DNA of 45,157 bases, from the IMG/VR virus record IMGVR_UViG_3300001683_000005, positions 1-45,157 of that record; one strand, 5' to 3'. A program made the position numbers and the translations under genes. Numbering within the stretch: position 1 is the stretch's first letter; each line of letters starts with the position of its first letter. A model generated the notes under the pieces. That model was not told where the DNA came from. It ran no database searches and worked only from the letters and a program-made list of their open reading frames with translations. Of the stretch, positions 9,027 to 45,157 are shown piece by piece. This DNA is from a virus.

Positions 9027-9459
9027 GACGGTGGCGGAACTGTGCCATCGAGAGTACGAGACTGGTGACCTATGGTTGCTCAAAGGAAGGCTCATTCCTA
9101 GCGCAGGCAGATCTTATGAATACGAGGAGTTTGCACAAGAGGGATATGCCCTGACTCTTATCAGGAATGGAGTGGTGGAAGCGTGTATGGGGGTTGTCGC
9201 AGTTGATGACGGTATTGAACTGTGGAGTGCTCCCAGTATAGGATTGGTTGAGGATCATCTTGTAGAGTATTGCAGGCTTGTTATGAGACTTGTCGATGTG
9301 GCGGCAGATGAGCATCGTGAGGATCTTATAGTTCATGTGCTGGAGGACGACATAAAGACCCAGCGGTGGCTTTCATGGTTGGGCTTTGAGGACCGGGGAA
9401 TACGGAAAGAGGGCGGGATAGCAATGCTGAATATGGGCGGGGGTGACAATGGGTATTGA
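9016..9459 (+). CDS. Hypothetical protein in the gp13 position (147 aa); weak GNAT-like C-terminal signature
   Basis: ATG at 9016 preceded by GGAGGTGAG, overlapping the nozzle gene end by 11 nt. ...HVLEDDIKTQRWLSWLGFEDRG resembles the C-terminal ..lGF.. element of GNAT acetyltransferases, but only weakly. Confidence 0.5.
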   Translation: MATKTVAELCHREYETGDLWLLKGRLIPSAGRSYEYEEFAQEGYALTLIRNGVVEACMGVVAVDDGIELWSAPSIGLVEDHLVEYCRLVMRLVDVAADEHREDLIVHVLEDDIKTQRWLSWLGFEDRGIRKEGGIAMLNMGGGDNGY

Positions 9460-9910
9460 GACCGCCGTCATGGCAATCGGTGGAGCGGTGCAGGGCTACC
9501 AGAACAAGAAGCACGGAGATAATGCCGCTCGTGCTGCCCACCGGGCCTCACTTGCCCAGATCAAGGCTCAGAGGCAGGGCAGCGTGGCCCAGATTGCTCA
9601 AGGGCTAGGGGACGCGCTCATGGGCGATAAAAACCTCGCGTGGTCACTTGGCCGGGTGGTGGGAGGCGCCACGGCACAGGGCAGCGGCAGGATGGGGGCA
9701 CTGGATATTGCGAGGGCTATGCAGGGTTCATTCAACATGACGCAGCAGGCAGACAACACACTCCAGGGGCGGTACAACGCGAACTCTGCGAACTTCACAA
9801 ACTCCATGCTCTCTGCTGGCGGGCAGATAGTAGGCGCCTGGGGGGACGGGCCGACAGGCACTTCCGGGCTTAACTACGGCCCCACCGCTACCTACTTCGA
9901 TTGGACATAA
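9443..9910 (+). CDS. Internal virion protein (gp14 position), 155 aa
   Basis: GTG at 9443 or ATG at 9449, overlapping the upstream stop. Hydrophobic, Gly-rich N-terminus (GIETAVMAIGGAVQG) and Gly/Ala/Gln-rich body. Function is assigned from synteny with T7. Confidence 0.55.
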   Translation: MTMGIETAVMAIGGAVQGYQNKKHGDNAARAAHRASLAQIKAQRQGSVAQIAQGLGDALMGDKNLAWSLGRVVGGATAQGSGRMGALDIARAMQGSFNMTQQADNTLQGRYNANSANFTNSMLSAGGQIVGAWGDGPTGTSGLNYGPTATYFDWT

Positions 9911-9913
9911 GAG

Positions 9914-11776
9914 ATGGCAAAGATGCGCCGCCCAATAAGAGAAGGTTCAGCAGCCACGCCCCGCTATCGCACTCAGTTGTGGTCAGCGGAACAGGCGGAC
10001 CCACGGGCTGTGTATGAGGCGGCACAACGGCCCGGCATTGGTGTTGGCCTGAACAACCTGTTTAAGGGGGTGCAGAAGGCTGGCAAGAACATTGAGAAGC
10101 ACCAGGACCGCCAAGCGCAAAAATACATAGCCCTGGCAGAGGAAAAGATAACAGCCCACAGGAGGCGAGGCTTAGGGGAGGCCGCTGACGCATTCCTCAA
10201 CGCCGACATGATAGACCCAGCGAAGTATAGCGCTCAGATCGAAAAGGTTGTGGATGATTCGTATGCCTTGGTTCTCAATGATCCCTCTGCGCCGGAAGCC
10301 GCAAGGAAGTGGGCCAGAGACAATGCCGCCCTGACCAAGGTTAACCAGAAGGATGGGGCGAACGCTATGGTTCAGTCCTCCTGGCATCAGCGGGTTGGGA
10401 AGCAGGTGGCCGACTTTACCGAGAACCTTCGGTTAGGGAAGGACGGGCTTCCCAGGTCCGAGCCGCTAGACATGGATGAGTTGCGAGACTTTCTTGGACC
10501 CATGACTTTGGAATACGAGGCCGTTCTAGCATTGGACGATAAGGGGCCTGCGGCAGAGGAGTTCAAAACAACAGCCATGGCCAACATGAAGTCCGCTCTG
10601 GGTGTGTGGGTGAGAGAGTCAAATACCACTCTTTCTGGGGCGCTACTGAACTACAGAACGCTGCTTGTTCAGCAAGAGGCGGCGCAATACTTCACAGCGT
10701 TCACCGATTCCTCGGGACTTCCAGGGGGTTCTTACGCCATAGCCGTGGAAGAGTGGATAGCAGGGGACATCTCTGACGAGTCACTATTGGCATACGAGAC
10801 CGCTATAGCAGAGGATAGGGCCGATGCTGGAGAACGGCTCACCTCCACATACATGGGCTTGTTCAGCATGGCGCCAAAGGATATGGGGCTTGGGCTGGAT
10901 GCCGACATTGCTCGCGAGTTGGTTTCGCACATCACTGATTTGAGTGCCGACGCGATGGGGGACAAGGGCCACCCGTTCAGGACCATGATCGAGGACTTGC
11001 CGTTGGCGATGGTTGAAGCCATGGGTGTTAGTGGGAATGAAACTGGCACTCTCAACACCGACTTCTCTGTGCTAGATAAATCTGCTGGCCATCTAGGCGA
11101 TATTATAGCGATACTAGAACTGGGGCAGGGCACGAGCCTCTTCAATGGCGCCCTCTTAGGGGAGTTTCAAGAGGCTCAGTTGCAGGCAAGCAAACTCAAG
11201 AAAGAGATCACGGGCTTCGTGGAGTATTGCAACAAGCCCGATGGCGGACTGACGATGGAGGGCGCCCGATTTATCGGCAGATCAAAAGTGAGTCCAGCGG
11301 AGGGCGCCGCGCTGCGGGCCATGATTGGCGAGTCCGTTGAAGCCACTATGGCGGGCGGGTCTTCCGATACGCAGAAGGCGGAGAAGATTGCCACCTTCTT
11401 CCTGGGAATGGCTACCAAGAGCGGCTTCCCCCAGGCCGCCAGTGCGTATCTCCAGGACGCAATCAGTTCCTCCTTGAGAACCGGAGGTGGAGCGGGCAAC
11501 TTCAGGATGTACTGGTTGCCAGTCCTGTACGACATGGCGGTTGTTCGCGCTGAAGCAAGCGGCACAGAGACCCAAGGCGCAACTTCACGGGGCTTGGCGG
11601 CGTCTGGGGCGGTGCCGCATCCTATTCGCCCCGGTGTTTTCACGGGCGAACTGAAGGATGCGTATCGTTTGTTCCGCATTACTGTCAATGAAAACTCCAC
11701 TGGTAAGGTGCCTGATAGTGAGGAACTGTGGGGGTGGTGGCGGGATGCGTCGATTCAGGCGGGAGAACAACAATGA
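9914..11776 (+). CDS. Internal virion / ejection protein, 620 aa
   Basis: Long ORF 4 nt after the previous stop, within the gp14-gp16 syntenic block. I recognise no enzymatic motif. Confidence 0.55.
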   Translation: MAKMRRPIREGSAATPRYRTQLWSAEQADPRAVYEAAQRPGIGVGLNNLFKGVQKAGKNIEKHQDRQAQKYIALAEEKITAHRRRGLGEAADAFLNADMIDPAKYSAQIEKVVDDSYALVLNDPSAPEAARKWARDNAALTKVNQKDGANAMVQSSWHQRVGKQVADFTENLRLGKDGLPRSEPLDMDELRDFLGPMTLEYEAVLALDDKGPAAEEFKTTAMANMKSALGVWVRESNTTLSGALLNYRTLLVQQEAAQYFTAFTDSSGLPGGSYAIAVEEWIAGDISDESLLAYETAIAEDRADAGERLTSTYMGLFSMAPKDMGLGLDADIARELVSHITDLSADAMGDKGHPFRTMIEDLPLAMVEAMGVSGNETGTLNTDFSVLDKSAGHLGDIIAILELGQGTSLFNGALLGEFQEAQLQASKLKKEITGFVEYCNKPDGGLTMEGARFIGRSKVSPAEGAALRAMIGESVEATMAGGSSDTQKAEKIATFFLGMATKSGFPQAASAYLQDAISSSLRTGGGAGNFRMYWLPVLYDMAVVRAEASGTETQGATSRGLAASGAVPHPIRPGVFTGELKDAYRLFRITVNENSTGKVPDSEELWGWWRDASIQAGEQQ

Positions 11777-13806
11777 TTCCTGATCGGCGCGAAGAGCGTC
11801 TAGCGTCTGGGTATGCGGCTATGGGGTACAACACCACCGAGGAGGTGGAAGGGTTGTGGTCACTCTCCGGGTTCCAGGAGGAGTTGGCTACTCGTTTCTC
11901 GGGGGAGGCTGGGGGCTTTGAGGGGTGGGCACAATCTGAAGCGGGCTTCAATATAAACGAGGGCATGGTCTTTACCTCAGGTTTGCAAGATACACGCAGG
12001 ACCGCGAGCGAGGCGCTGCACAACTCTTCTGGTCTGCTTCGTAAGGAGGTTGAGAGGAATATGTCCACCTTCCTGTTCGATCACCCAAACGAGGCCAGCC
12101 AGATGCCGATGAGATTCAGAAACGAGGTGGAGAAGTGGTTCGAGAGAAGAGACTACACGATGGTGGGTAGGCAGAATGTTAGTATGGAAGCCCTCCTGGG
12201 ACAGAAGGGCAATCGGAACTTGCTTCCAGGCACCTACCAGGGAATCCAATACGAAAGCGGTGCAGTGCTGGAGATGGAGTTGGCCAGGGCATTACAGGCG
12301 TCGGGGAAGTATGACGGCACGACTGGAAAGATTTTCGACGATCTGACAGACGAGGGGAAGGGCAGGTGGGTTCTGGAGCAGGCAGGTGAGTACGGCCAGT
12401 TTAAACTGTTTGTCCTGCCACGAGATGGAGGACCATCAGGGGTGGTGAGGGACGCTGAAGGCAACGACATAAAGATAGACCTTAGAGATGTTGGCAATAC
12501 CGAGTATTTCCGACTGCATAAGATATGGTCCCATTGGGGCAGGCCCTCTGGCGGCGCCCTTGCCAACCTCTTAGACCCGCATCACCAGGGCAGGATGTCC
12601 GTAGACGCGTCCTCCCCCGATCACCAGTGGGCTACAGGGATGATGATAGAAGCGGCGGCTGCGGCGTTCTCTGGTCGTGATACTGAGTTTAGTTTCCCAG
12701 AGCGAGGCGTGGGCCAGCGTGGCGAACAGCCGTGGTTTGGCGCTCAACGCACCCTCCTTGAAAGAGATGTGATGGGTCGCGTGCAGGAGGGGGGGGTGGG
12801 CGAACTCATCAAGAAGGCAGTGAAGGGCGCGTGGTGGTTGGCCACCGTAGGTGGTCGCCAAGGAAGGAACTCAAAAGATTTCTTCAAGAACGCGCTTGAG
12901 GAGGCTCGCCAGATTGGGAGGGCGGGGAAGAGTGCGAAGGATTGGGGGACGGGGGGGGTGAAGAAGATCCTGGAGAAGGTGGCTGCGGCTGGAGGGGCGG
13001 GAGCATCTGCGAAGAAGATAGCGGGGGCGACCATCACGGGGATTGGTAAGATATTACTCGCCGCCACGAACCGATCAATAGGCGGATACCCCGGAAGGAG
13101 CGCCGTTCTCGGCACCGTTGCTTGGTGGCTTTACGATGCCTCCGGTGACAAAGAAGGGCTACATCCCGTCGAGATGACACGGGAGATGATGTATGCCGTC
13201 ATGGAGAGTCCCGAGGCGCAGGTACTGTTCAAGACGCCGATGGACCTCCTTGAGCCGTTGTTGAACAATGAGGAATCCTATCCAGGGTCTCAAGCATCAG
13301 ACTGGAAAGGCTCTCAAGATCCACCTGTCTCCAGTTACCAGCCGGGAGAGTCTGGGTTCTCTGATGTAGATGTAAAGATGATTACGGCAATAGTGGATGA
13401 GGTAGGGAGAATCCAGGCCGATGAATCATGGGGGGCGTGGTGGACAGATGTGCTCCTAACCGATAACGAGCAGACGCTGGCTGCCTCCATGACGGTCGTC
13501 AACGCGATGTTCCCTAGTCTAGAACGCGAAATGGACTTCGATCCAGCCGTCATGGAGGCGGTGTCTATGCTGATTTCGAGAACCCCGGAGGGTAGCGACA
13601 ACGCCAAACTTGTGTGGGGGATGCTCAAGGAGCATTGGGACAAGTCTGGCGAGGAGCAGGAGGGTTGGCTTTGGGACTCCACGCCTACCGGAGACGACCG
13701 CATGAAGTTGTATCGGCAGTATTTGAATGAAGATGAGCGGTGGGGGGATCTATCTCTGGCTGACAAGATGGAGGCTATGTTGGTTGGCCAGGGCTGGGGA
13801 TACTAA
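11773..13806 (+). CDS. Internal virion / ejection protein, 677 aa
   Basis: ATG at 11773 overlaps the upstream TGA (ATGA), so I prefer it to the track start at 11728. Contains a Gly/Ala/Lys-rich hydrophobic stretch (...KKIAGATITGIGKILLAATNRSIGG...LGTVAWWLY). Confidence 0.6.
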   Translation: MIPDRREERLASGYAAMGYNTTEEVEGLWSLSGFQEELATRFSGEAGGFEGWAQSEAGFNINEGMVFTSGLQDTRRTASEALHNSSGLLRKEVERNMSTFLFDHPNEASQMPMRFRNEVEKWFERRDYTMVGRQNVSMEALLGQKGNRNLLPGTYQGIQYESGAVLEMELARALQASGKYDGTTGKIFDDLTDEGKGRWVLEQAGEYGQFKLFVLPRDGGPSGVVRDAEGNDIKIDLRDVGNTEYFRLHKIWSHWGRPSGGALANLLDPHHQGRMSVDASSPDHQWATGMMIEAAAAAFSGRDTEFSFPERGVGQRGEQPWFGAQRTLLERDVMGRVQEGGVGELIKKAVKGAWWLATVGGRQGRNSKDFFKNALEEARQIGRAGKSAKDWGTGGVKKILEKVAAAGGAGASAKKIAGATITGIGKILLAATNRSIGGYPGRSAVLGTVAWWLYDASGDKEGLHPVEMTREMMYAVMESPEAQVLFKTPMDLLEPLLNNEESYPGSQASDWKGSQDPPVSSYQPGESGFSDVDVKMITAIVDEVGRIQADESWGAWWTDVLLTDNEQTLAASMTVVNAMFPSLEREMDFDPAVMEAVSMLISRTPEGSDNAKLVWGMLKEHWDKSGEEQEGWLWDSTPTGDDRMKLYRQYLNEDERWGDLSLADKMEAMLVGQGWGY

Positions 13807-16800
13807 TGGCGACGACCTATAAACAAGACCCCCCCAGAGCCTACCCAGAGGCGCTGTACTATAAAGGGACACATAAGCGCGGCAGAGACATTACTAGGTT
13901 CGGGGCAGCCTTCCGAGACATGAATCTGTTCTATGCTGGGTATCGCTATTACGACGACCACTACTCCTTCCACATCCCTCCGACCAAGGGATGGGGGGTG
14001 GAGCAAAACAAAGCCAACCTCTCGGCATACTACGCGCCCCATGTGAAGGCTTACCCTCGCCTGCTCTCTGCTCGTAGCAGGCAAGAGCAGGACCGGGTCA
14101 AGGATATTGTGCGGCGCTCAGTTGCCGATAGGGAAGTGCTGCACGACATGGGCTTTTTTGAGAGCCTCATGTTCTACCTCCCAGTGGGAATGACCAGCCC
14201 CGAGAACTGGGTGCCACTCTCTCGCGCCTTCCGGTTGGGCATGACTGGTTCGAGGGCGGGTGCTTTCAAGGTGGCTGCCGGAACTGGGGGCCGTGCGGTA
14301 ACGGAGGTTGAGAAGGCGGCTCTTATCGCCGCTCATAGAACTCACCCGGCAATCGTCTCGGCGGCGCACATTGGCGACGATATGACACACGGCCTCGCTC
14401 AAAACCTGCTTCAGAGAGTTGCTCTATCAAAGACCACGATAGGGCAGGCGGCTTTGGCCACTGGCCTGGAGGGGATGATAGCGGGGGCTGTTTCTGAGAT
14501 GGTGCTTCAGAAGACTCAACCGCTCCGCACCATGGAGGAAACCTGGATGAGCATCGTCGGAGGCGGCGTGTTCGGAGCCGTTCTCGGAGGAGGCTTCTAT
14601 GCCATAGGCAAGACTTATCGTGGGGCTTTGACCAGTTTGCTCGGACAAGAAGTTGCAGGTGATGTGGCGGTGGCATTGAGAGGCGAATTAGGCAACACGC
14701 TCAATGAGGTGGTTGAGGCGGGTGCAACAGGCTGGATAAGAAAGAGTGACAGAAAGGCGATGGACGAGGGCTTCACTCCCCCGGACGGGCACAGGGACGA
14801 GTACGACTATGTGGAGGTGGCGCCCGGCGCAGATACAAGGGCGGCTGCTGACGAAGCAGTGACGAGGGTTGTGGATGAGGAAAATGCAGCGAGGGCGGCG
14901 GAGGAGGAGGACGCAGCGAGGGCGGCGGATGACGATGACGCCCCAACTGAGTTAGCGCAGGCAGAAGAAGTTGCCCCGAGGGAGAGTGCGACCGAAGTTG
15001 CCACTAGCGATGCTGCCATTGCGAGTCCTGCTGAAGTCTTGATCTCGAAAAGGATGCATGAGGCCCTGCTCCGGCTCGATGCGGACACCAATACCGTAAG
15101 CAGTAAGGTGGCCAGACTGGTCGGCCTAGCCGAAGGCAACACCTTCTGGGGCCGACTCGTGGGTCGCTGGCTGCTCTGGAGTCCCAACACGAGAATGGGC
15201 CAAGAGATCACCGACTACGGGCGGCAAATGTATCAGTTGTTTTCTGGTGGAGCACTCACTCAAGAGGCAGGGTCCAGAGGCCACGGTGTTAATCGTCCTG
15301 GAGCGGACGCAGCGTCGCAGTACATGGAAGTGATGAACCTGAGGCTAGTGGGAGAACTTGCCAAACTCGCCAGGGAGGTCACGGCGTCGTCTGGCGTATC
15401 AGAGATAGACCTGCGCTCCCTCGCCCACTCTTATGCTGTGCGCTCTTATGAGGACGACGGTGTGACCCCTCGTGCCCTAGATTTGGCGGACGAGTTCCAT
15501 GAGAGTTCAGGGCTAGAGGGGGCCGAACGGTCGGTATACGACATAATCAATAAGATTGAAGACCCGACTGCTAGACAGGCGGCAGTTGACGGTGTCGAGC
15601 GTGCGGTCAAAGAGATATATGATCCGTTCATCGAGAACACCGGGAAACTCCTCAGGTCCATGGGCCTTCTGAAACTGGATTCCAGCCAGACCCGACGCAT
15701 GGCAGCCATGTATGTGGCAAGGATGTATGACGCCACGAAGATCAGGAAGCACTATGATGCGTTCTTTGCGTCTGTTCGTGCCGGGATCGAGGAATGGAAA
15801 GCCTCCGACGAGCCGTCGCTAGTAGCGTCGATTGAGGTTCAAAGGCAACTGGTTGCTGACCCCGGCTCGACAGCCTCTGACGCTGCGCACTTGGTCGTCC
15901 TGGAACAAAGGCTGGCTGATCTTATAGGCATAGACGACGCTCGTATTCACGCCGTGATCCGCAACATAATCAATGACCCGATCAACTCTGACATGGCCTC
16001 TAGCCGAATGGGCCCGCAGAACTCTTTACACGAGAGGGTCTTGTTGCTCCGTGATGAGTTTGTGGAGCCGTTCCTTGTTAAGGACATTGGGCTGGTCATG
16101 CAGACGATCACTAAGAGGCACATCCCGAAGGTGGCGATCTACCGATACCTCGCCTCCCCGGTGCAACTGGAACTCATGCAGCGCACGCTGGATCAGTATG
16201 AGGCTTTTGACGACATAATGAAGGCGCTGCGTGACCCTGCGACTGGGAAGATTCCAGACAACTTGCCCAGGGCCGAGGTGGAGAAAGTCACGAAAGCAAT
16301 GAATGACCTCTTCCAGTCAACTAACTTGTTGAGGCTTCATAATGGCTTGCGCCTCTTATCCGTGTTCAAGCCAGAAGTAGCAGGCCAAGCGGTCGAGGCC
16401 AATGGTCAAGCCGTTGATATGGTCGGTATCACTAACAGAATCAAAGACCTGCTGCAAGAACACAGAGACGCTAGTGACACGGCTCATAACCAGCAAGTTG
16501 TTGCCGACGGGTTTGAGGAGAAACTGCTGTCACTGGAGCAAGATATTCAAGACTCGATGAGGGACGCCATTGGGGGCACGACTCCGGCGGAATCCGTGCT
16601 GGATGCCGCCACACTAAGACAGCATCGTGGTTCTCTTATTGTGCAAATGCTTGACGACATGGTTGCCCGAGTGGACTCCGATGAGATTCGTGATGCTGGC
16701 GCTGAGGTGCAGGCAGCCGTGAGCACACTGACTGCCTTCGGAGATGAAGGCGAGAGAGCCCTCAGGGGCGAGGCATTTCTTAACGGCTTGAAGGCGGACA

Positions 16801-18650
16801 TAAGGGAAACGGTTGAGCGGGAGTTTGCCGCGGTCGTTGAGTCGTCCCGGACGCCGGATAACAACAACCAGGGCGGTGATGTTAGTACAAGGGTTGCCAA
16901 TATGGGCCCAGCCGCCTGGGTGCTACACCTCGCTAGGAACATCCATGATCCAGAGAAGTTGATATCAGAGGGCTGGGCGAGCCGAGAGATGATCGACTTG
17001 GTGGAGTCGAAGTTTCTCAAGGGTGGGACAGCCGAAGCGGGGGGGGCGAGCGTCACCAAGGGCGTCTTCCAGTTAGACCCGCATGGCCTCAAGGATGTTA
17101 TTAAAGGGTTCTCGGGCGCCGACTTTTCCACCGCTGTCCATGAGATTGGGCACGCCCTTCGGTTAAGGACTCTTACCAGGGCGAAGATTACTGATGGTCA
17201 TGCGGGAGATGTTACCCACCAGGATATGGACGACCTTGAGTTGTGGGCGAATGACGGCAGGGCTCTTGATCCGTTGGCTGAGGGCAAGGATCGAGTGTGG
17301 ACAACAGACATGGAGGAGAAGTTTGCCCGTGCGTTCGAGCAGTATGTCGCCGAGGGCAAGTTCCAACCGGGCGTCAGCGCTGGTGTGAAACGAGTCATGG
17401 AAGAGTTGATGAAGGCGATGAAGAGGGTGTATCAGGCATTCGCTGGCCGTTTCTCTACGCCGCTCGACCCGAGGGTGAAGACCGTGTTCGACAAACTCCT
17501 CTTATCAGACGAGGACATAGTGGCTGCGGCTGCCAGGGAGACCAACAACTCACCACACAGGCGGCTCACCGAATCTCAAAAGACTGACATTAAGAGAGTC
17601 TTCCACTTGTCGGACTCTGAAGCCGATGGCATCTACGAACTGTATGACGCCCTCAACCTTGACAAGGGCATGATAGTTTTCAAGGACAGTAGCGAGGTAG
17701 CCCCAGGCGGCCTGGAGCAGCGAACCGAAGGCAAGGGAGAGTTCCTTGCTGATAACAAGGTAGATCTTGCAGGGTGGGTGGACGAGTTCACAAACCACCC
17801 TGATTGGAAGGAACGATATGGCGAAGAAGTCATTGAGGGACGCATACGCACGAGCGGCTTCCGCGTTGAGTCTACAGCCGGAGTTCTCTTCAGGGACGGG
17901 CTTATCGAAACCGCCACAACCCACAGATTCGGGAAGGCCGTCGAGGTCAAAGACCAAGCCTTCTACCTCGACCCAGAGGCCAGAATCTACCTCGCCAGAG
18001 ACGCCACCGCAGGGCTCGTAGTCACTCCAGATAGAGACCTGATAAGCGTCCATAAGATGCCGGGCAGTGCCGCAGACATAAACGGGCTTCTCTCGCAGGC
18101 AAGCAAGTTCGCTGAAACACTCGACGGCTTCGATATCAATGGCCACCTGCCCACCCTCTATGGCAGGCATGGCTGGCGTCCGGTAGCCAGGGCGGAGTTC
18201 AATCCAGACTTCCGTCCTGAGGGCTGGGATATGAGGCCAATAGATGAGGGCGGCCTGGGGACTCCTGACATTGTTCTTATGGTGTATGACCCAACTGATG
18301 CGCTCAGGCTTCCGCACGCTGATTCGTTTAACGAGGTGAGGGATCAGGTTCCATTCTTATCAATGGATAAGTATGACGACGCAGTTGCCCTACAGACCCA
18401 GGCCAAGGAACTTATCCGAGAGTCTGTAGGGGGGCGCACAGGTGACGAACTCGACATACAGGCCAAGCAATATTTCCAGACCGAGAGCGAGGTGCCTCGT
18501 ATAGAGGGAGAAGACCATGGGTCGCTGGCTGCCCGTGCAGTACACAGCCCTGATAATCTTCTCAGAGTCTTCGGGACTCCCGACAACATAGAGGGTACTG
18601 GAACTCACCCTCGGTCAAGTCTGCCGAACACTCCGGTTCGAGATCTGTGA
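13806..18650 (+). CDS. Giant virion (ejection / polyvalent-type) protein, 1614 aa, with a zincin HEIGH metallopeptidase motif and a GNAT-like C-terminal region
   Basis: TAATG-coupled start. Hydrophobic segments occur near aa 220-270, and there is an acidic EENAARAAEEEDAARAADDDD tract. HEIGH at 17139-17153 is followed about 55 aa later by EEKFARAFEQYV, a candidate third-ligand Glu helix. 17850-18300 has a GNAT-like pattern (LISVHKMPGSAADINGLLSQA...LPTLYGRHGWRPVARAEF). Confidence 0.65.
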   Translation: MATTYKQDPPRAYPEALYYKGTHKRGRDITRFGAAFRDMNLFYAGYRYYDDHYSFHIPPTKGWGVEQNKANLSAYYAPHVKAYPRLLSARSRQEQDRVKDIVRRSVADREVLHDMGFFESLMFYLPVGMTSPENWVPLSRAFRLGMTGSRAGAFKVAAGTGGRAVTEVEKAALIAAHRTHPAIVSAAHIGDDMTHGLAQNLLQRVALSKTTIGQAALATGLEGMIAGAVSEMVLQKTQPLRTMEETWMSIVGGGVFGAVLGGGFYAIGKTYRGALTSLLGQEVAGDVAVALRGELGNTLNEVVEAGATGWIRKSDRKAMDEGFTPPDGHRDEYDYVEVAPGADTRAAADEAVTRVVDEENAARAAEEEDAARAADDDDAPTELAQAEEVAPRESATEVATSDAAIASPAEVLISKRMHEALLRLDADTNTVSSKVARLVGLAEGNTFWGRLVGRWLLWSPNTRMGQEITDYGRQMYQLFSGGALTQEAGSRGHGVNRPGADAASQYMEVMNLRLVGELAKLAREVTASSGVSEIDLRSLAHSYAVRSYEDDGVTPRALDLADEFHESSGLEGAERSVYDIINKIEDPTARQAAVDGVERAVKEIYDPFIENTGKLLRSMGLLKLDSSQTRRMAAMYVARMYDATKIRKHYDAFFASVRAGIEEWKASDEPSLVASIEVQRQLVADPGSTASDAAHLVVLEQRLADLIGIDDARIHAVIRNIINDPINSDMASSRMGPQNSLHERVLLLRDEFVEPFLVKDIGLVMQTITKRHIPKVAIYRYLASPVQLELMQRTLDQYEAFDDIMKALRDPATGKIPDNLPRAEVEKVTKAMNDLFQSTNLLRLHNGLRLLSVFKPEVAGQAVEANGQAVDMVGITNRIKDLLQEHRDASDTAHNQQVVADGFEEKLLSLEQDIQDSMRDAIGGTTPAESVLDAATLRQHRGSLIVQMLDDMVARVDSDEIRDAGAEVQAAVSTLTAFGDEGERALRGEAFLNGLKADIRETVEREFAAVVESSRTPDNNNQGGDVSTRVANMGPAAWVLHLARNIHDPEKLISEGWASREMIDLVESKFLKGGTAEAGGASVTKGVFQLDPHGLKDVIKGFSGADFSTAVHEIGHALRLRTLTRAKITDGHAGDVTHQDMDDLELWANDGRALDPLAEGKDRVWTTDMEEKFARAFEQYVAEGKFQPGVSAGVKRVMEELMKAMKRVYQAFAGRFSTPLDPRVKTVFDKLLLSDEDIVAAAARETNNSPHRRLTESQKTDIKRVFHLSDSEADGIYELYDALNLDKGMIVFKDSSEVAPGGLEQRTEGKGEFLADNKVDLAGWVDEFTNHPDWKERYGEEVIEGRIRTSGFRVESTAGVLFRDGLIETATTHRFGKAVEVKDQAFYLDPEARIYLARDATAGLVVTPDRDLISVHKMPGSAADINGLLSQASKFAETLDGFDINGHLPTLYGRHGWRPVARAEFNPDFRPEGWDMRPIDEGGLGTPDIVLMVYDPTDALRLPHADSFNEVRDQVPFLSMDKYDDAVALQTQAKELIRESVGGRTGDELDIQAKQYFQTESEVPRIEGEDHGSLAARAVHSPDNLLRVFGTPDNIEGTGTHPRSSLPNTPVRDL

Positions 18651-18858
18651 AGACGATTTAGAAGGGACCAGGGGGGAGGTTGTCCACCCGAACTTCCCCG
18701 GCACGACCGAGGAGTTTGGGCTGCCCACCACAGCCGGAGCCCTGCGAGAGGCCGGATACAAAGGCGCTGACAAGGAGAAGATTGAGCACTGGCACGAGAC
18801 TACCTATGCAACTAAGCCAGACGAACAAAGAAAGAAGTCGTTCTCGGTAGAAGACTCG

Positions 18859-21800
18859 ATGAAGTTGCAAGATGAGATTCTCGTCCCCCATGAGAAGGTG
18901 CTGCGCTACATTGATGGAGTGGACGAGGAGCAAGTGCAAGTATCTGCGATGGGGTACGCCCCGTTGGTGGCAAGGAAGATCCATAACGAACAGGCAATAA
19001 GTTATGGCGAGATCACCCGCCTCATTGATAATAGGCTCGACTTCCTTATGTTCCAAGGGCTGCATAGCCAGAGAGAAGAGATCGAAGGCTACTTGCAATG
19101 GGCGATACGGCAGCATCCTAATGGCAAGCCGTTCCTTGTCGGTGATGATATCAGTCTTGGGGTTCGTGGGAACGGCGGGGAGGCCGTGCATCCTGAGAGT
19201 TTCATAAACGCGCACTCTATCACCCGAAACAACGGCATTGCAATCACTGACGAAAACCTTCTGCGAGCAGACCTAGACCACGAAGTGTTCCGTAAGGATT
19301 ATATTGAGCAAGCAATGTCTGACTTTGATTATGTTATCAAGCAGGTTGGGGAGGGAATGTCTGAGATAGACAGCGTCGCCACGGTCAAGGTGCTCAATGA
19401 CCTCAAAGTAGAGGTACGGGCGGTGCTGGAGAACACGCCGAAAGTGCAAGGTGGACTGCTCAGTTCGCTTGCGTCTGATATGTCCAACTCGTTGATTTAC
19501 AACAGGACGAGAGAGTCCCGAGTGTACAAGGCGAGCAGAGACCTAGCAGCAAAGAAGAAAAGTGGCGCCCCTCTCACCGACGCCGAGTCTGCAAGGGATG
19601 TGTGGAGCCGTAGCGTATATAAGGAGTCAGGCGCCAAAGTGAGGCCGGAGATCGGCGAGCCACCGCAAGGCCCCCTGGAAAACCTCCCTTGGTACAACCT
19701 GACTGGGCTAATCGAAAAGCAGTCATGGAAGGGTCACGAAGAAGGCGGACTGGTCGCTCGGGCTATCATGGATCTCATTGGGGATGGCTATCATAACCCG
19801 GAAAGCCTCGACATTCGCCTGGGGCAGTTCGAGGACAATGTCCGCTTGAGTAAGATATGGGCCAAGCAGGATGCCCTGTTCAATCTTGAACTCGAAATAA
19901 ACAAAACAGATCCACTCCTCACTAAGTCAGCCAGGAAGAAGGGAGAGGCTGCGGTCAGGAAGGCTTGGAAAGAATGGGGCGCCAAGTTCCATAAGGAGCA
20001 GTGGGAGCCCGTATTCGGCAAGGGTAGCAGGGTGGACCCCCACGGGTTCGGGACTGTAAAAACTGGCCCTGATCACCACGGCTCGACCCTCAGAGAGTGG
20101 GAGCACGATGGTGGCCTGATCGACCTGGAGAACATTAGAGACATCGTGCCCGGTCTGCTTGAGGAGTATGGTCAATATCAAGCGCAACTAAAATCAGCGC
20201 TTCGAGTCCTTTATCCGTCAGGTCTGATTCCGGTTGCTCGGTGGCGAGACTTCCTAAGCAACGCACGAAGCGCAGAGCATGACTTCAGATACTCCACTGC
20301 TGGGACTCGCTCACCAGACACTGCGATATCCTTGAAGGCAAAACAGGGCGCCATGCTCAGTATGGGTGACAGGTCCATGTTGTCCGCTACGATTCAGCAT
20401 CCTGAGGCGTTCCATAAGACGACCATCGGTGCTCCGCCCCCTTACGGAGTTCGTGGAGCCCCCGAGGGGTCGGCCACACATGATGTAGCGTACCATGAGA
20501 CTCAGAACATGGTCCTCACCAATGAGGGCGATAAGATCATGAAGGTGACCAAGGGCAGGAAGGTCTTGAAGGAGGTCAGAAAGGACGGCGACACATTCGA
20601 GCAGCCCTCGGATGCCTGGATGGCCAAAACAGAGGGCACACAGCCGGGCGTCGCTGTCCATGAGATCGTTCATATTGATGACATCTTGTTCATGGGTGCC
20701 GCCCGAGAGGGCGAGGTCCATGTCAAGAGGAACGCCCTCCTCTATAACAAGCATCGCACAGTCGCAGATCTATACCAGACCAGCGAGGTCATCCAGAAGA
20801 TCATGGATGAGGTTGAATCTCTTATTGACGGCAAGAAGGTCACCCCGAACGCTGCGGTGGCAAAGGTGCTGGTAAGGCTTGGCTGGGCTGTGCCGATGGG
20901 ACAGGCCAATCAGACGGGGCTCAAGCAGGTCTCGCCCAGGCAACTGAAATCAATGCTGCTCGCTCTGCAAGCGAACAGTAAGAGGATGCTCTTCCACGAC
21001 AAGGCGGACGAGGCTGCCCGATTCTGGTACGAAGATTCCTCTGCCGGAATCCTTGAGGCGTTCCAAGGAGACCTACTTCAGGCGTCGATGTTCATTGATG
21101 TCCTGGCGATCACCTCGGCTAACACCAACCCAAAGCAAAACCTCGGTAACGCATTAGACACCGTGGCCAAGATAATGAACCTGCCAAACCTCAAGTCGGG
21201 CGTGACAAACTTGTTCCCGTCCCATGCGTTCCCTCTCACCTTGAAGCCTAAGTTGGAGAAGATTGTTCTTGGATATGACGCCGCTGGACGAGCGGTTCGG
21301 CTCGGCGACCAGGACTGGTCTATCAGGCTCAGTTCAGGGAAGCGCAACGCCTTCAAGACCGCTTCCTTTGCTCGCACGATTCACCGGGCGCTCCAGTACG
21401 ATATCTTCAGAGAGGAAATGCAAGGTCACTGGCAGTCAGAACTGCACGATGTGGTGGCGGATGTTTGGATGTTCCGCCACTTCCAGTTTGGCAAGACCGG
21501 AGCGCAGGATACTCCAGCAAAGTTCAATGAGCGTCTAAGGCGGTTCCAGACTCACATGGAGACTCTGGGCGCCAAGGGTGACTCGAAGGAGTTGCGTAAA
21601 GCCAGGAATGCGGAGCGTAAGTCCAAGAAGCACCTGAACTATTCGGATTCCACTCGCTCCCTTGATAGTGGCAAAGACTACAAGTTCATGACTGACATGA
21701 TTGAGATGCTGACCGACGAACTCAATGAAGACGCTTATCGTGGAGCGACGGACTGGAAACCATGGCAAGTACAGGCGATGTTGTGGACAACGCATCGCTT

Positions 21801-24800
21801 CATCGAGGCGGGCGAGTCTGACCCCATGGTTTACCACAACCTTCTTGAAGAGGGGTATCCGTGGAGGGCGAATCATCCGTTCACGCCGGGCCCCTCCTCC
21901 ACGCACTTGAATGGCCTGGAGGCCCTGCCGGACAATATAAGGGTGCAGATCGCTGCGCTGCGTAACCGTGCCACCTCTGACTTCCAGACTGACTCTTATG
22001 TGATTGCAACAAACAAAGGCGACACTGGCCACGCAACTCTCGACCTCGCTCTCAAGGAAGTTGGAGGCGAGGCCCACGCCCGGTCAACTGAGGCTGTGCG
22101 TCGTGTTGTGTCCGAAGAGGCGAAAGTGATAAGAGTGGACGGTGCGGTCACTCCCAAGGGGAACCGTGGTCACGCTACCCAGGTCGTCGAGTTGCGGACA
22201 GGTAACGACGACAGGCTACGGGCGGCTGGTGCGAGAATGGGACTGGCTGGTGGCCACGATAATGTCCTCACCTTCCGTGTGCGTCAGTCTGGTAAACAAG
22301 CGCTTCAGATCGTCGAGTTTGATGAGTCGCTCAGTGCTACTCAGATCAAGAACTTGCTGAAGCGACATAAGATGGGCAAGCACTCGATCACAAAGGGCGA
22401 AGGCGACGGGTATCGTGTCTTCATTTACGATGACACTTACGGCAAGGGGGCGCAGTTGCGCTCGCCTGTGCTCATGAAAGTTAGGGAGTGGGTCAGTAAT
22501 GGGAAAATCAAAAAGCACGAAGAGGTCAGGGGGACAGCGGAAAGGGTCGGGGCAGACGACGGCTCCAGCAAAGAAGTCATCGCCGCCTCTTATCGAGACA
22601 CCCTCAGAGGAGTTGACGAGCGAGGGAGCGAAGCCCACAAAGCCCTCGGAACGAGCGTTCCTTATAGTTATTCCCTCGTAAGGGCTACGGGTAGCAGCGC
22701 ACGGAGTGGGCATAACGCTCCGGGGGCAGACGCTGTTCTCCTCGAACTTGGGCTGCCGGGGCTCTCGTCGGTCACGCCTGGGGTGACTGGTACCACCCGT
22801 CTCTTCTTACCGAATCAGGTCATTCCGGCAGCGGTCAGAAGGGAGGCGGAGGAGTGGATCACTAAGACCAACCTGGAGCAGGGCGGAAAGCCAATCTCGA
22901 AGGCGATAATCAAAGCGCTCGCAGGAGTGCTCAACGACGGCGTGCACACGGTCAATGCTGGCAACCAATGGGCAGCAGCCACCGCTGCGCTCTACAGGCT
23001 CGACTCGATTACCTGGAGCCGGATCGTCCCGCCGGATCTGACGAACTCAAAACTGCACAATGGCTATACACTCATGTTGCCCGAAGGTGCGGTGTGGGAC
23101 AGGGACTCGCTCGCTGATCTCCGTGCTCATTTCGAGACGCTCGGCCCGCTCGCTAAGAGGCTTCGGTTTGAGCAGCAGAGCCCGGAGGGTCTTGGGATCT
23201 ATATCACCACGGAGAGAGGGGGGCTGAACTGGTTCCCTGACTCGAAGACAGGGAGCGGTCAGCAGCGCACGGAGATTGACGCTAACCTCTTTCCAAGACT
23301 CCACGAGGCGACGCTCACCGTTAAGAGGTCGCTGGCCGAGTGGAACAAGGGGCGCCCAGAAGCAGGGATGGTCGAGTACGAAGGCTTCACTTATGTTGGT
23401 AACAGATTAGAAAACGATTGGAGTGTGAATCCAAATGGAGAAGGATATCTCGACGCCCCGTGGAAGGGCCCTGGTGGAAAGGCTGTCAAAGCAAGGGTTC
23501 AGGCAGTTGTCAGGAAACTCTTACCCAGAATGGATGCCGCCGACGAAGTTGCCGCAGCCCGGTACGGACTCCAAGTCAACCCAGAACTTCTCAAGTCCTA
23601 CCGAACCCCAGACCACTCCTCCTCCATCGAAGCCGGGCGGGGAACAAACACCTTCTCAAGGGGCGCCTCCGACCCCTCCGTCCGAGGGCGGGAGCCAGAA
23701 TACTTCCAGCACAACGAAAGGCGACAGATAAACTCAGACCTCGAAGCGCTTGGCCTCGGCGGCCTGTTCGACAGCGAGACCATTGCTGGTAACCGCCCGG
23801 AGATCGAGGCTGCACTTGGGAAGATAAGAGAGGGGCGAGCCCGGATCGAAGCGGCAACACGGGCTGCCGGGGGCGAGACCGACCCCAATCAAATGCTGGA
23901 GAGCCTTATCAGTGAGGCTATTGGCCGGGCTGAACAGACTGGTGACCTGCCAGAGATACCGGGCTTCCCCAAACTGACTCAAGGCGTGCAGGATCTCATG
24001 GCAGCGAGAGGCCAGGAGGGCGCCGTCAGGGCCGCTAGGGGGGCTCTGGATGAGGCCGACCCTGGTGGTGCCCCCGCCAGAACGGAGGTCGCAGGGGCCC
24101 AGGGTGGCCTTCGTGCCGCTCGTCACGGGGTCGCCCGAGCAGAAAGCGAGTTCGATTCAGCAACCCAGGAACTTCGTGCTATTTCCGCTGACCTGGGGGT
24201 GCCGACTGACGCCTCCTCCAGGGGGCGGCCAGCCGATGGCTACGAGCCGCACTCTTATGCTTATCCAAAACGGAGAGGGTCGTCGGGTGAGGAGATGGAG
24301 GCCATGGCAGGGAGGGCCAGAGCGGCCACCGAACAAGTCCGCTCGGAAACCAGTGGCGACGCTCTCTCTCTTGAGCCGCACCTTGCTGTTATCAGGCGAG
24401 CGTATGAGAAGAAGGTGGCAGCGGCCAGAACAGCCGGGAACGATGCGGAGGTTAAGAGGCTGGAGAAGCGCTTCCACCAGACCGCAATGGACTTGCAGGC
24501 CATGAAGGATCGAATCCTCAACACTCACGGCATCAATACTGACGCTGTGGGCTACGGAATGAGACTCGCTAAGGCGGCGAAGGACTTCAACTACATTCGA
24601 TTCATGGGGGGCGTGACCCTGAGTTCGATTCCCGACCTCGCAATGGGGATCTCCGTGGCTGGTCTCCGCCCCTACCTCACGGCCTGGGCCAAAATGCTAA
24701 AGGCCGAGATCCTCAACGACGATGTTGCGAGAGCCGACATCGCTAAACTGATCTACGCTGCGGAGACCGTGCTAGGTGAGGAGCGGGTAAGAAAACTCTA

Positions 24801-25890
24801 CTTCCTTGACGACAATCCAATGCAGATCGAGCAGACGAAAGCCGAGAAGGGCTTGGAGTGGAGCGCCCGCAAGTTCGGTAAGTGGTCAGGAATCCAGTAT
24901 TGGAATGCAGTGAACAAGGCGGTGGCTGCCACGGCAATCCAGAGCAGGGTGATCGAGATAAGCCGGAAGGTGCGTGCAGGAACCGCAAGCGCTTTTGAAC
25001 TGGAGATGCTCGGCCAGTTCGGGATCGACACGGAAATGGCCACACTCGTCGCCCGAGTGCACGGAGTAGTCGGAGAGACTGGAGTGGACCTGTTTGGTGG
25101 AGACTTCTACCACAGCCGAGTGGATCTCTGGGACGGGCCGATTGACGGGCTAAGAGCAGACGAAGTTGCGTTCCTGAAGGAGCAATACTACATGGCGATC
25201 ATGCAGGCGGTGAACCGGACAATCGTCACCCCGAATGCTGGTGACCTGCCTCTTATCGCAACCTCTTCCGCTATAGGGAAACTCCTCTTCCAGTTCAAGT
25301 CCTTCAGTTTCGCAGCCACTAACAGCGTGCTCATCTCTGGGCTCCAGCGAGGACTGGAGTATGGAGATATCTCCCAGGTGATCCTCTTGGCCGGGCTGTC
25401 GTCTCTTGGAGGGTTCGTCTACGCAGGCAAGGAGTGGCTCGGTGGCCGTGACCCATTCCGCTACGAAAATGACATCTCCAAGTTCATTGTCGAGGGCATG
25501 GACAGAGGCGGTGGCCTTGGAATCCTGAGTGAGACGAATGCTATCTTCGAGAAGACCTTCGGCCTTGGCCTGTCCCAGTTCGCTGACAGTGGACCCTTGT
25601 CACGGTACTCTTCTCGTAACAAAATGGACGCCTTGATGGGCCCCACCTTTGGAACGGCGAAGGATATGCTGACTATCGCTGGATCATTCCCTAAGATGTT
25701 CACTGCCGACGATGTCAGCGGATACGAGATAGATGCGGCCCGGAGAATGTTCGCATTCCAGAACTTGATCCAGACACGGCTCGCTCTGGATGTTGGGCCG
25801 TCTCTTATCCAGGGCGGGGACGACTTCTTTGCTAACTTCAAGCCTCTACACCGTCGTATGGCGGGCGTTGCTGGGATCGGTGAGGAATAA
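18859..25890 (+). CDS. Giant virion (ejection / polyvalent-type) protein, at least 2343 aa; the 5' end may extend upstream (see findings)
   Basis: The first ATG/GTG/TTG is at 18859 and has no good SD. The same frame is open and coding-like back to 18592. AVHEIVH lies at 20653-20673. C-terminal hydrophobic segments (e.g. VTLSSIPDLAMGISVAGL, VILLAGLSSLGGFVYAG) are typical of ejection or membrane-insertion proteins. Confidence 0.65.
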   Translation: MKLQDEILVPHEKVLRYIDGVDEEQVQVSAMGYAPLVARKIHNEQAISYGEITRLIDNRLDFLMFQGLHSQREEIEGYLQWAIRQHPNGKPFLVGDDISLGVRGNGGEAVHPESFINAHSITRNNGIAITDENLLRADLDHEVFRKDYIEQAMSDFDYVIKQVGEGMSEIDSVATVKVLNDLKVEVRAVLENTPKVQGGLLSSLASDMSNSLIYNRTRESRVYKASRDLAAKKKSGAPLTDAESARDVWSRSVYKESGAKVRPEIGEPPQGPLENLPWYNLTGLIEKQSWKGHEEGGLVARAIMDLIGDGYHNPESLDIRLGQFEDNVRLSKIWAKQDALFNLELEINKTDPLLTKSARKKGEAAVRKAWKEWGAKFHKEQWEPVFGKGSRVDPHGFGTVKTGPDHHGSTLREWEHDGGLIDLENIRDIVPGLLEEYGQYQAQLKSALRVLYPSGLIPVARWRDFLSNARSAEHDFRYSTAGTRSPDTAISLKAKQGAMLSMGDRSMLSATIQHPEAFHKTTIGAPPPYGVRGAPEGSATHDVAYHETQNMVLTNEGDKIMKVTKGRKVLKEVRKDGDTFEQPSDAWMAKTEGTQPGVAVHEIVHIDDILFMGAAREGEVHVKRNALLYNKHRTVADLYQTSEVIQKIMDEVESLIDGKKVTPNAAVAKVLVRLGWAVPMGQANQTGLKQVSPRQLKSMLLALQANSKRMLFHDKADEAARFWYEDSSAGILEAFQGDLLQASMFIDVLAITSANTNPKQNLGNALDTVAKIMNLPNLKSGVTNLFPSHAFPLTLKPKLEKIVLGYDAAGRAVRLGDQDWSIRLSSGKRNAFKTASFARTIHRALQYDIFREEMQGHWQSELHDVVADVWMFRHFQFGKTGAQDTPAKFNERLRRFQTHMETLGAKGDSKELRKARNAERKSKKHLNYSDSTRSLDSGKDYKFMTDMIEMLTDELNEDAYRGATDWKPWQVQAMLWTTHRFIEAGESDPMVYHNLLEEGYPWRANHPFTPGPSSTHLNGLEALPDNIRVQIAALRNRATSDFQTDSYVIATNKGDTGHATLDLALKEVGGEAHARSTEAVRRVVSEEAKVIRVDGAVTPKGNRGHATQVVELRTGNDDRLRAAGARMGLAGGHDNVLTFRVRQSGKQALQIVEFDESLSATQIKNLLKRHKMGKHSITKGEGDGYRVFIYDDTYGKGAQLRSPVLMKVREWVSNGKIKKHEEVRGTAERVGADDGSSKEVIAASYRDTLRGVDERGSEAHKALGTSVPYSYSLVRATGSSARSGHNAPGADAVLLELGLPGLSSVTPGVTGTTRLFLPNQVIPAAVRREAEEWITKTNLEQGGKPISKAIIKALAGVLNDGVHTVNAGNQWAAATAALYRLDSITWSRIVPPDLTNSKLHNGYTLMLPEGAVWDRDSLADLRAHFETLGPLAKRLRFEQQSPEGLGIYITTERGGLNWFPDSKTGSGQQRTEIDANLFPRLHEATLTVKRSLAEWNKGRPEAGMVEYEGFTYVGNRLENDWSVNPNGEGYLDAPWKGPGGKAVKARVQAVVRKLLPRMDAADEVAAARYGLQVNPELLKSYRTPDHSSSIEAGRGTNTFSRGASDPSVRGREPEYFQHNERRQINSDLEALGLGGLFDSETIAGNRPEIEAALGKIREGRARIEAATRAAGGETDPNQMLESLISEAIGRAEQTGDLPEIPGFPKLTQGVQDLMAARGQEGAVRAARGALDEADPGGAPARTEVAGAQGGLRAARHGVARAESEFDSATQELRAISADLGVPTDASSRGRPADGYEPHSYAYPKRRGSSGEEMEAMAGRARAATEQVRSETSGDALSLEPHLAVIRRAYEKKVAAARTAGNDAEVKRLEKRFHQTAMDLQAMKDRILNTHGINTDAVGYGMRLAKAAKDFNYIRFMGGVTLSSIPDLAMGISVAGLRPYLTAWAKMLKAEILNDDVARADIAKLIYAAETVLGEERVRKLYFLDDNPMQIEQTKAEKGLEWSARKFGKWSGIQYWNAVNKAVAATAIQSRVIEISRKVRAGTASAFELEMLGQFGIDTEMATLVARVHGVVGETGVDLFGGDFYHSRVDLWDGPIDGLRADEVAFLKEQYYMAIMQAVNRTIVTPNAGDLPLIATSSAIGKLLFQFKSFSFAATNSVLISGLQRGLEYGDISQVILLAGLSSLGGFVYAGKEWLGGRDPFRYENDISKFIVEGMDRGGGLGILSETNAIFEKTFGLGLSQFADSGPLSRYSSRNKMDALMGPTFGTAKDMLTIAGSFPKMFTADDVSGYEIDAARRMFAFQNLIQTRLALDVGPSLIQGGDDFFANFKPLHRRMAGVAGIGEE

Positions 25891-45066: not shown

Positions 45067-45157
45067 AGCCAAGGGAAGCCCGGTGTCGGACAACTTCTCG
45101 TAGTTTGATAAAACAATAAACTACGCAAGGAATCTGCCACCATGGCTATTACCAACT
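45067..45157. repeat. Terminal direct repeat, right copy (identical to 1-91)
   Basis: Same 91 nt as bases 1-91, compared base by base. Confidence 0.95.

Follow-up and report, generated by a model that had tools for sequence, protein, structure and literature searches.

Podophage ejection proteins are usually viewed as a channel kit of fairly fixed size, in which gp16-type members measure 609-1,337 amino acids (aa) (PMC8954989). In the model available for T7, gp16 residues 411-1118, which lie between two transmembrane regions, form a hub in the host cytoplasm (PMC8954989), and the model of the phage A4 pre-ejectosome includes an ejection protein at least ~1,715 residues long. Moreover, a 4,515-aa virion protein has been detected by mass spectrometry in phage JC1. 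Among the domains of polyvalent proteins the zincin-like metallopeptidase is the commonest and GNATs are listed too, while gp16 and internal virion proteins are never mentioned in that paper (Iyer et al. 2017, PMC5512222). Here we analyse a 45,157-nt stretch of viral DNA, the IMG/VR record IMGVR_UViG_3300001683_000005 (termed the window, by which we mean the whole stretch), and in particular the block of genes that follows its nozzle gene. The two largest open reading frames (ORFs) of this block, D and E, correspond to a single gene in all known relatives. Together they would make up one T7 gp16-type ejection protein that carries a large cargo insert in its middle, a reading to which we give a probability of about 0.6.

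Bases 1-91 of the window are repeated exactly at 45067-45157. This 91-bp terminal overlap indicates a circularly closed assembly with a true genome length of 45,066 bp. Gene order and profile matches identify the block at 9016-25890, which is found among the late and virion genes, as the module for the ejection (internal core) proteins of a short-tailed, T7-like phage: it adjoins the nozzle gene, the PHROG family phrog_342 matches both D and E, and a profile of normal gp16-like proteins runs collinearly along the two. A first-pass annotation of the sequence had proposed this identity for five ORFs of 155, 620, 677, 1614 and 2343 aa at 9443-25890 (here A to E), all of which exist on the plus strand. 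The module itself starts outside these coordinates, with a phrog_308 internal virion protein ORF at 9016-9459. The five ORFs span 16,448 bp, or 36.5% of the 45,066 bp, in agreement with the 36% estimated earlier, and the sum of about 2,400 aa that had been given for T7 gp13 to gp16 comes to 2,399 aa when counted. The order of the genes (adaptor-like, nozzle, 147 aa, 155 aa, B, C and D/E) is identical in normal relatives. One such normal-sized member of the lineage, E. coli phage EC.W1-9, has proteins of 154, 191, 915 and 1129 aa at the matching positions. The reading frames stay open in three distinct relatives (~90-98% identity), and the ratio of nonsynonymous to synonymous substitution rates (dN/dS) is 0.07-0.3 across most of E, which together show that the coding is real.

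The earlier claim that D and E are two separate giants does not hold outside the window, since in all known relatives, three of which are distinct, they form a single fused ORF. Its length is 4,309 aa in L005 and 4,354 aa in L006, two IMG/VR contigs with 89-98% DNA identity to the window, and 4,277 aa in P0001, a protein-cluster representative that came from an exhaustive search of 1.84 billion representative proteins. At ~4,300 aa this is the longest ORF at the gp16 position among the podophages compared.

Both ends of the fused protein are gp16-like. T7 gp16 matches phrog_342 over its full length, and the same profile matches D 31-436 with its positions 228-487 (E-value 6e-8) and E 1842-2306 with its positions 781-1215 (E-value 2e-33). 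The C-terminal part of E is also matched by phrog_16310 (E-value 7e-80), and tblastn with the C-terminal half of E finds proteins encoded at the gp16 position in podophages of E. coli, Klebsiella and Vibrio at E-values of 1e-50. We built a Hidden Markov Model (HMM) of the scaffold from four normal gp16-type homologues of 1,004-1,129 aa, those of phages EC.W1-9, TL-2011b, Vibrio 1.138.O and ctHz2215. Its states 171-230 match D 218-276 weakly, states 394-624 match D 596-834 (E-value 1.6e-11) and states 612-1034 match E 1862-2311 (E-value 1e-76); hhalign gives the D match a probability of 96.4%. Most importantly, the matches run collinearly and meet at state ~612-624, so that all the sequence between D ~835 and E ~1861 amounts to one insertion, of ~2,640 aa in the window and 3,035 aa in L006. 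By rough profile arithmetic, the insertion point would correspond to T7 gp16 residue 850-880.

The features that the first-pass annotation had listed in the giants were all recovered. In the scaffold, a Kyte-Doolittle scan places hydrophobic segments at D 215-268 (nt 14448-14609), E 1915-1936 and E 2169-2190 (nt 25363-25428), and a simple hydropathy scan of the normal homologue of EC.W1-9 places hydrophobic segments at 195-223 and 985-1007, in the same relative places. An acidic Ala/Glu/Asp tract lies at D aa ~348-395. The remaining listed features, two HExxH motifs (at D1112 and E601) and a GNAT-like region at D 1356-1535, belong to the insert. All features are collected in Table 1.

Table 1. 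Features in and around the post-nozzle block of the window (coordinates in nt of the window), followed by the giant ORFs of other phages used for comparison
Feature	Size or residues	Coordinates	Strand	Basis or place
Adaptor-like gene		3877-6351	+	phrog_394 match
Nozzle gene		6351-9026	+	phrog_376
Small internal virion protein (gp13/gp14-like)	147 aa	9016-9459	+	phrog_308, E-value 2.6e-4
ORF A, second small post-nozzle protein, Gly/Ala/Gln-rich	155 aa	9443-9910	+	no family match
ORF B, gp15 position	620 aa	9914-11776	+	no family match
ORF C	677 aa from ATG (692 aa from GTG at 11728)	11773-13806	+	orphan
ORF D	1614 aa	13806-18650	+	ends at TGA 18648-18650
N-terminal half of gp16-like scaffold	D aa 1-834	13806-16307	+	phrog_342, HMM, hhalign
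Zincin-like module	D aa 1084-1243	17055-17534	+	phrog_9880, E-value 1.5e-17
GNAT-like module	D aa 1356-1535	17871-18410	+	tblastn, phrog_2563
Junction of window-specific in-frame deletion	921 bp (307 codons)	18460-18487	+	comparison with relatives
Window-specific deletion site	20 bp	18640-18650	+	alignment with L005/L006, frame translations
Remnant linker		18651-18858	+	open in E frame, coding in relatives, no start codon in window
ORF E	2343 aa	18859-25890	+	
Orphan fast-evolving cargo	E aa 1-600	18859-20658	+	identity windows, dN/dS
DUF7178-like all-alpha domain	E aa 702-990, insert at aa ~773-935	20962-21828	+	phmmer
Short module NDWS-x-NP-x-GE-x-Y ... RYG	E aa 1501-1582	23359-23604	+	common to DUF7178 proteins
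C-terminal half of gp16-like scaffold	E aa 1842-2343	24382-25890	+	phrog_16310, phrog_342, tblastn, HMM
Pseudomonas phage AF giant	2,213 aa			gp16 position
Xanthomonas phage Tenjo giant	2,341 aa			gp16 position
Vibrio phage MZH0603 giant	1,902 aa			gp16 position
Limnohabitans phage DC33 giant	3,125 aa			gp16 position
Microcystis phage Mel-JY33 giant	4,012 aa			gp16 position

At least four distinct conserved modules can be delimited in the fused protein, and motifs together with non-significant PDB profile matches suggest that some of them may be enzymatic. The zincin-like module of D contains the motif HEIGH at aa 1112-1116 (nt 17139-17153) and, downstream of it, a conserved E-x-x-A-R-x-x-E-x-Y helix. 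It is homologous to the giants of phages AF, Tenjo, CP2, MZH0603 and Mel-JY33 in tblastn, and also to that of DC33. The H, E and H and the downstream E are invariant across five phage sequences, and HExxH is kept in the relatives of the window. In a PDB profile search the best matches of this module are mostly zincins (ACE, neurolysin, Spartan and thimet oligopeptidase; E-values 0.03-0.8), and Pfam Peptidase_M78 matches the phage AF copy with an E-value of 0.07. A second HExxH, HEIVH at E aa 601-605 (nt 20659-20673), is kept in the relatives as well.

The GNAT-like module of D is matched by tblastn to the C-terminus (aa 360-523) of a 'minor capsid protein' of Microbacterium phage UtzChips (E-value 5e-9) and also matches the DC33 giant, which thus contains both of these modules of D with their order reversed. 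The best PDB profile match is the GNAT 2qec (E-value 0.087), over the region of motif A and beta5 (the acetyl-CoA motif). Motif A itself (R/Q-x-x-G-x-G/A) is recognisable in the UtzChips copy (VRGIARTLL) and degenerate in D, and there is no Pfam match for the module.

Long low-complexity linkers join the modules of the insert. In the fused protein (G6), YFQ in the context [QE]YFQ occurs three times (aa 1559, 1875 and 3626) versus 0.14 times expected by composition, and all three copies are at module boundaries; the sites in the window are D aa 1556 (~18471-18479) and E aa 1615 (~23701-23709). Speculatively, these motifs might be processing or cleavage sites, or only linker remnants of a cassette duplication. 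A match of one tile to His_Phos_1 (E-value 2.4e-4, below the gathering score) falls in a low-complexity linker and was treated as spurious. Two A[KR]QYFQ linker repeats also flank a 921-bp cassette that is present in all three relatives (14238-15159 in L006) and lost from the window. By eye, this cassette shows a GNAT-like R-G-Q-G-A ... Y-Q-R-K-G-F pattern. It has no tblastn match, and neither Pfam, PDB nor the profile of the D module supports the GNAT idea for it.

The N-terminal 600 aa of E evolve fast. Their identity among the relatives is 62-90%, versus at least 92% in each later 100-aa window (at least 94% from aa 701), and their dN/dS is 0.8-1.3. No relative beyond the near-identical cluster was found for them among the 1.84 billion representatives. 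Further downstream, phmmer matches six large proteins (P0002-P0007) to E 702-990 at library-wide E-values of 7e-6 to 8e-4. Pfam calls DUF7178 at the matched place in five of these six (not in P0006) and itself calls no DUF7178 in E. The set also carries ART-PolyVal, LPD38, LPD23 or LPD14. Moreover, DUF7178 proteins of 855 and 1,184 aa are found in post-nozzle ejection modules of marine podophage contigs, and a 2,354-aa protein that combines DUF7178, ART-PolyVal and LPD38 is the last gene of its structural-strand block. On the 3' side of the latter come small genes and then minus-strand SSB and Erf genes, a layout that resembles the one in the window. We also noted that in the marine podophage contigs L013 (10625-14035) and L014 (7048-10602) the DUF7178 proteins (855 and 1,184 aa) are separate genes just upstream of a large protein, which in L013 (1,136 aa) has a weak match to an internal-virion-protein PHROG and in L014 (1,002 aa) has none. 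One DUF7178 protein, P0004, ends in a segment that resembles a ParB C-terminal domain.

On the strength of these shared modules, the module set of the insert belongs to the polyvalent-protein domain network. A comparison with polyvalent proteins had been made in the first-pass annotation, and it stands in so far as the shared modules recur in giants with Pfam matches typical of polyvalent proteins. The domain models made for this family, in contrast, miss D and E: in Pfam searches with both proteins at full length and with 450-aa tiles of them (covering D completely and E 1-1850), MPTase-PolyVal, ART-PolyVal and LPD1-39 gave no match at an E-value of 1 or less. Giant ORFs at the gp16 position are not unique to the window and its relatives, since ORFs of 1,902-4,012 aa occupy it in published podophages with genomes of 39-47 kb. 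The giants of AF, Tenjo, MZH0603 and DC33, the four that were scanned with Pfam (Mel-JY33 was not among them), carry LPD22, LPD23 or ART-PolyVal. As a side observation, the 39-kb genome of DC33 (L010, PQ492659.1) is filed under Inoviridae. This label looks wrong, because several large ORFs surround its polyvalent giant and it has PHROG families in common with the giant of the podophage AF.

How the fused gene came to be split in the window can be read from the alignment with L005 and L006. Directly after GAGATCTG, 20 bp are missing, which shifts the frame and leads to the TGA that ends D. The linker that remains between D and E is rich in P, G, T and E and looks interdomain. The undeleted form is found in one further copy on a metagenome contig (two contigs with the undeleted form), and the junction created by the deletion is absent from every other IMG/VR and JGI metagenome contig searched. 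No record elsewhere matches the D or the E product exactly. E, furthermore, starts 208 nt past the stop of D and has neither a Shine-Dalgarno sequence nor translational coupling, and promoter and terminator scans found nothing above chance, nor any promoter-like signal in the gap between D and E. All this, together with the fused ORF in the three distinct relatives, is what would be expected if the split arose through faulty assembly or sequencing, or belonged to a defective or minority variant, with the true phage encoding a single protein of ~4,030 aa. However, a clean 20-bp deletion in non-repetitive sequence is atypical of short-read or homopolymer error, and it falls in a disordered interdomain linker, where the protein would tolerate fission. 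Moreover, the in-frame loss of the 921-bp cassette is a second, independent deletion in the same lineage, only 160 bp upstream, which suggests real remodelling. We regard an artefact as a possibility to be reckoned with, if a rather doubtful one. It would concern the split only, and it is compatible with the two ORFs being parts of one gp16-type protein with a cargo insert.

A +1 shift at CUG-UGA-A (window 18640-18660) would rejoin D to the E frame exactly (...PVRDL followed directly by EDDLEG...), and its product would differ from that of the relatives by the loss of the seven residues FWRTGRV. We judged a programmed +1 frameshift at this site unlikely: slippery re-pairing and an upstream Shine-Dalgarno sequence are both lacking, and in the relatives a frameshift would be superfluous.

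Several results weigh against D and E being a gp16-type ejection protein with effector cargo. With regard to the scaffold, T7 gp16 was not among the results when PDB was searched directly with a profile, and the link to T7 runs via the PHROG profile. The placement of the cargo on the cytoplasmic side follows from the T7 topology model combined with distant homology, and so depends on the model of a distant homologue. With regard to the cargo, no module reaches the curated threshold in Pfam or NCBIfam; this includes the Pfam search of the 450-aa tiles, a check of the kind proposed in the earlier annotation, which found no enzymatic domain at the curated threshold. In PDB, phmmer found nothing significant, and since the PDB profile E-values of 0.03-0.09 are not significant either, the evidence for a zincin and a GNAT consists of motifs and weak profile matches. 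Structure prediction did not help: AlphaFold2 on D 1040-1560, from a single sequence, gave an unusable model with a predicted local distance difference test (pLDDT) score of 36, and the model of E 690-1040, built from eight sequences, is all-alpha and of low confidence (pLDDT 47). In Foldseek the latter finds nothing below an E-value of 1 in PDB, and in BFVD it finds only non-significant matches, to large uncharacterised phage proteins. About 1,500 aa of the insert match no family or structure. Finally, E may be poorly expressed, given the features of its start described above, and two derived lesions in one gene imply that the cargo may be dispensable.

Some of these results would fit an insert that is structural padding, that is, one that builds a larger core or a cytoplasmic hub for DNA handling (binding, spooling or ratcheting), with the HExxH and GNAT likenesses being inactive relics. 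The segment that was modelled is all-alpha, as are ejection-protein scaffolds, and the A4 pre-ejectosome provides a precedent for large all-alpha ejection proteins that contact DNA. DUF7178 is found in the ejection-module proteins of ordinary size mentioned above (855 and 1,184 aa), in which no enzyme domain is recognised; no enzymatic domain of the insert passes any curated threshold; and the window has lost a cassette and had its gene split without obvious loss of the genome. Padding would not, however, account well for the invariance of H-E-x-x-H and of the downstream Glu, both across distant phages and within the clade. In addition, the modules recur in classic effector positions, as the C-terminal part of the UtzChips 'minor capsid protein' and as neighbours of ART-PolyVal in giants, and their shuffled order fits independent cargo units better than one integrated structure. 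As no enzyme assignment is significant, a structural insert keeps some weight, and on balance we consider it unlikely.

In the model that we infer for a gp16-type protein with inserted cargo, a few copies of the giant would be packaged in the capsid core and ejected ahead of the phage DNA. The ends of the scaffold would insert into the inner membrane and help to build the DNA channel, and would thereby expose the inserted cargo to the host cytoplasm as soon as infection begins. In the cytoplasm the cargo may modify or cleave host targets, possibly after zincin-like self-cleavage, in the service of host takeover or anti-defence, a direction in which the cautious reading of the first-pass annotation had also pointed. 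On a back-of-envelope estimate, four to five copies of 4,300 aa would add less than 3% to the capsid contents, and the cost of packaging would therefore be small compared with the cost in coding capacity. A bolder version would see the gp16 scaffold as a delivery platform that its two hydrophobic regions anchor in the inner membrane: the insert between them would be threaded into the cytoplasm beside the entering DNA end, the zincin-like module would cut the [QE]YFQ linkers to free effectors, E 1-600 would be engaged in an arms race with host defence, and the fission in the linker would be a step toward free-standing injected proteins. We put this version forward as a quite improbable one.

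The consequences reach beyond this genome. In this clade the gp16 scaffold tolerates a threefold expansion at one site, and the payload takes up about a quarter of the coding capacity of the phage. If the inferred topology is true, this would be a testable route by which a multi-enzyme payload gets into the cytoplasm before any gene expression. The natural variants (loss of a cassette, fission in a linker and 600 hypervariable aa) would mark parts that are under conflict-type selection, and they offer cut points for experiments. Moreover, the zincin-like family (phrog_9880 region), the GNAT-like family (phrog_2563) and DUF7178 with its partner module are conserved families which the Pfam models of polyvalent domains miss.

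Upstream of D, the 147-aa ORF, A, B and C are, by their position, the equivalents of gp13, gp14 and gp15, and comparison with the relatives identifies B and C as a swapped cassette. The 147-aa ORF is conserved in the relatives and has one hydrophobic segment (aa 44-64) in a hydropathy scan. A is kept, with 155 and 153 aa in L006 and L005, respectively, and in normal relatives this place is occupied by a pair of small genes (154 and 191 aa). The ATG of C overlaps the stop codon of B as ATGA. In relatives that are 92-98% identical on either side, window positions 10108-14122 are replaced by unrelated sequence. These 4 kb span B from aa ~60-100 onwards, the whole of C and the first ~110 aa of D. 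Only the first ~60-100 aa of B are thus common with the 583-aa gene of the relatives, the remainder being an unrelated replacement, and in place of C the relatives have an unrelated gene of 527/529 aa. No tblastn match in phage records (INPHARED) and no family match was found for B, and C had no match in INPHARED or IMG/VR. That B and C are replaced together with the N-terminus of the gp16-like protein would fit a swap of interacting partners.

A variable cassette in a genome without a fibre gene raises the question of whether the giants, or else B and C, supply the tail fibre or receptor-binding proteins that are otherwise missing; this would explain both features. As had been stated earlier, no tail-fibre gene follows the module: on the 3' side of E there are only three small ORFs (102, 116 and 153 aa) and then minus-strand genes (Erf, RecE-like exonuclease and ATPase). 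Moreover, a conserved N-terminus followed by a swapped remainder, as in B, is often seen in fibres. However, the place of B and C, with the small internal proteins before them and gp16 after them, is that of gp15 in normal relatives, and neither ORF matches a fibre or spike family. For the giants, a tail-fibre role was ruled out by the gp16 homology at both ends and the hydrophobic segments. A better candidate is the adaptor-like protein. It has 824 aa, of which only aa 612-823 (the C-terminal ~210 aa) match the gp11-type adaptor family of ~190 aa. Its N-terminal ~610 aa contain 9.5 tandem copies of a 69-bp (23-aa) Ala/Ser/Thr-rich unit, ATASDSATASDAAVAERPAATKS, in an array at 4478-5129; the homologue in L006 has 882 aa, and the copy number of the repeat may differ. 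Given the lack of a separate fibre gene, this 610-aa extension may be a fibre or appendage that is joined to the adaptor, and we consider it very improbable that B, C or the giants are tail fibre or receptor-binding proteins.

As to the genome as a whole, megablast against phage records found no close relative of the window, and a scan of GTDB genomes found no prophage relatives. The minus-strand region at 27862-30025 contains genes for an Erf-like annealing protein and for a RecE-like exonuclease, and the genome lacks any ORF of the size needed for a T7-type RNA polymerase. Besides its T7-like structural module, the window genome has an early region of another kind.

In size and place, the giant resembles Bcep22 gp75, JC1 gp69 and P1 DarB, virion proteins of ~4,500 aa that take up more than 20% of a podophage genome and stand at the end of the morphogenesis block. 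DarB and the Bcep22 protein had been named as precedents in the first-pass annotation, and if the likeness were one of descent, the giant would be an antirestriction protein that brings a helicase and a DNA methyltransferase in the virion to act against type I restriction. This would agree with the similar size, with the late-module position directly ahead of the lysis genes and with the large part of the genome that is taken up (22% in JC1). Sequence comparison does not: D, E and their tiles contain no helicase, methyltransferase or DarB-related Pfam or NCBIfam match, no Burkholderia, Ralstonia or P1-like record was among the tblastn matches of D and E in a set of 50,697 phage records, and the ends of the giant are gp16-like, not DarB-like. 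Homology to DarB or Bcep22 gp75 was rejected at the sequence level by these searches, and we see hardly any chance that the giant is a protein of this type; the scaffolds are different.

The N4 virion RNA polymerase (3,500 aa, ejected) contains a zincin-like metallopeptidase domain and so resembles the window giant, likewise a giant podophage protein with a zincin-like module. The N4 protein belongs to a different virion module, and no RNA polymerase domain was detected in the window giants. In UtzChips, the domain homologous to D 1356-1535 is at the C-terminus of the 'minor capsid protein', which is where MuF fusions place effectors. Head proteins annotated in this way are, we presume, usually MuF-like, whereas the carrier in the window is a gp16-type ejection protein and has no MuF domain.

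The giant also closely resembles the T7 gp16-type family. Both are the last and largest gene of a post-nozzle ejection module, both scaffold halves are collinear, and there is one hydrophobic region near each end. The two differ in length, normal members reaching at most 1,337 aa versus 4,277-4,354 aa in the relatives and 1,614 + 2,343 aa in the window. They also differ in that gp16 of the T7 subgroup has an N-terminal lytic transglycosylase domain which the window giant lacks: no SLT or lysozyme match was found in D, E, B or C, and in this clade the lytic domain is in the gp15-position protein of normal relatives. Polyvalent proteins are likewise very large, consist of many modules, are encoded in the virion gene block and have modules that are shuffled between proteins. 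In polyvalent giants, however, the cargo is strung after an N-terminal anchor; those of the AF type start with LPD22 and do not match the gp16-like scaffold of the window. To carry enzyme-like cargo is a known phage strategy, which takes an unusual and extreme form in this protein. What is unusual is that polyvalent-type cargo is carried within an identifiable gp16 scaffold, between two hydrophobic regions, and that natural variants of it exist.

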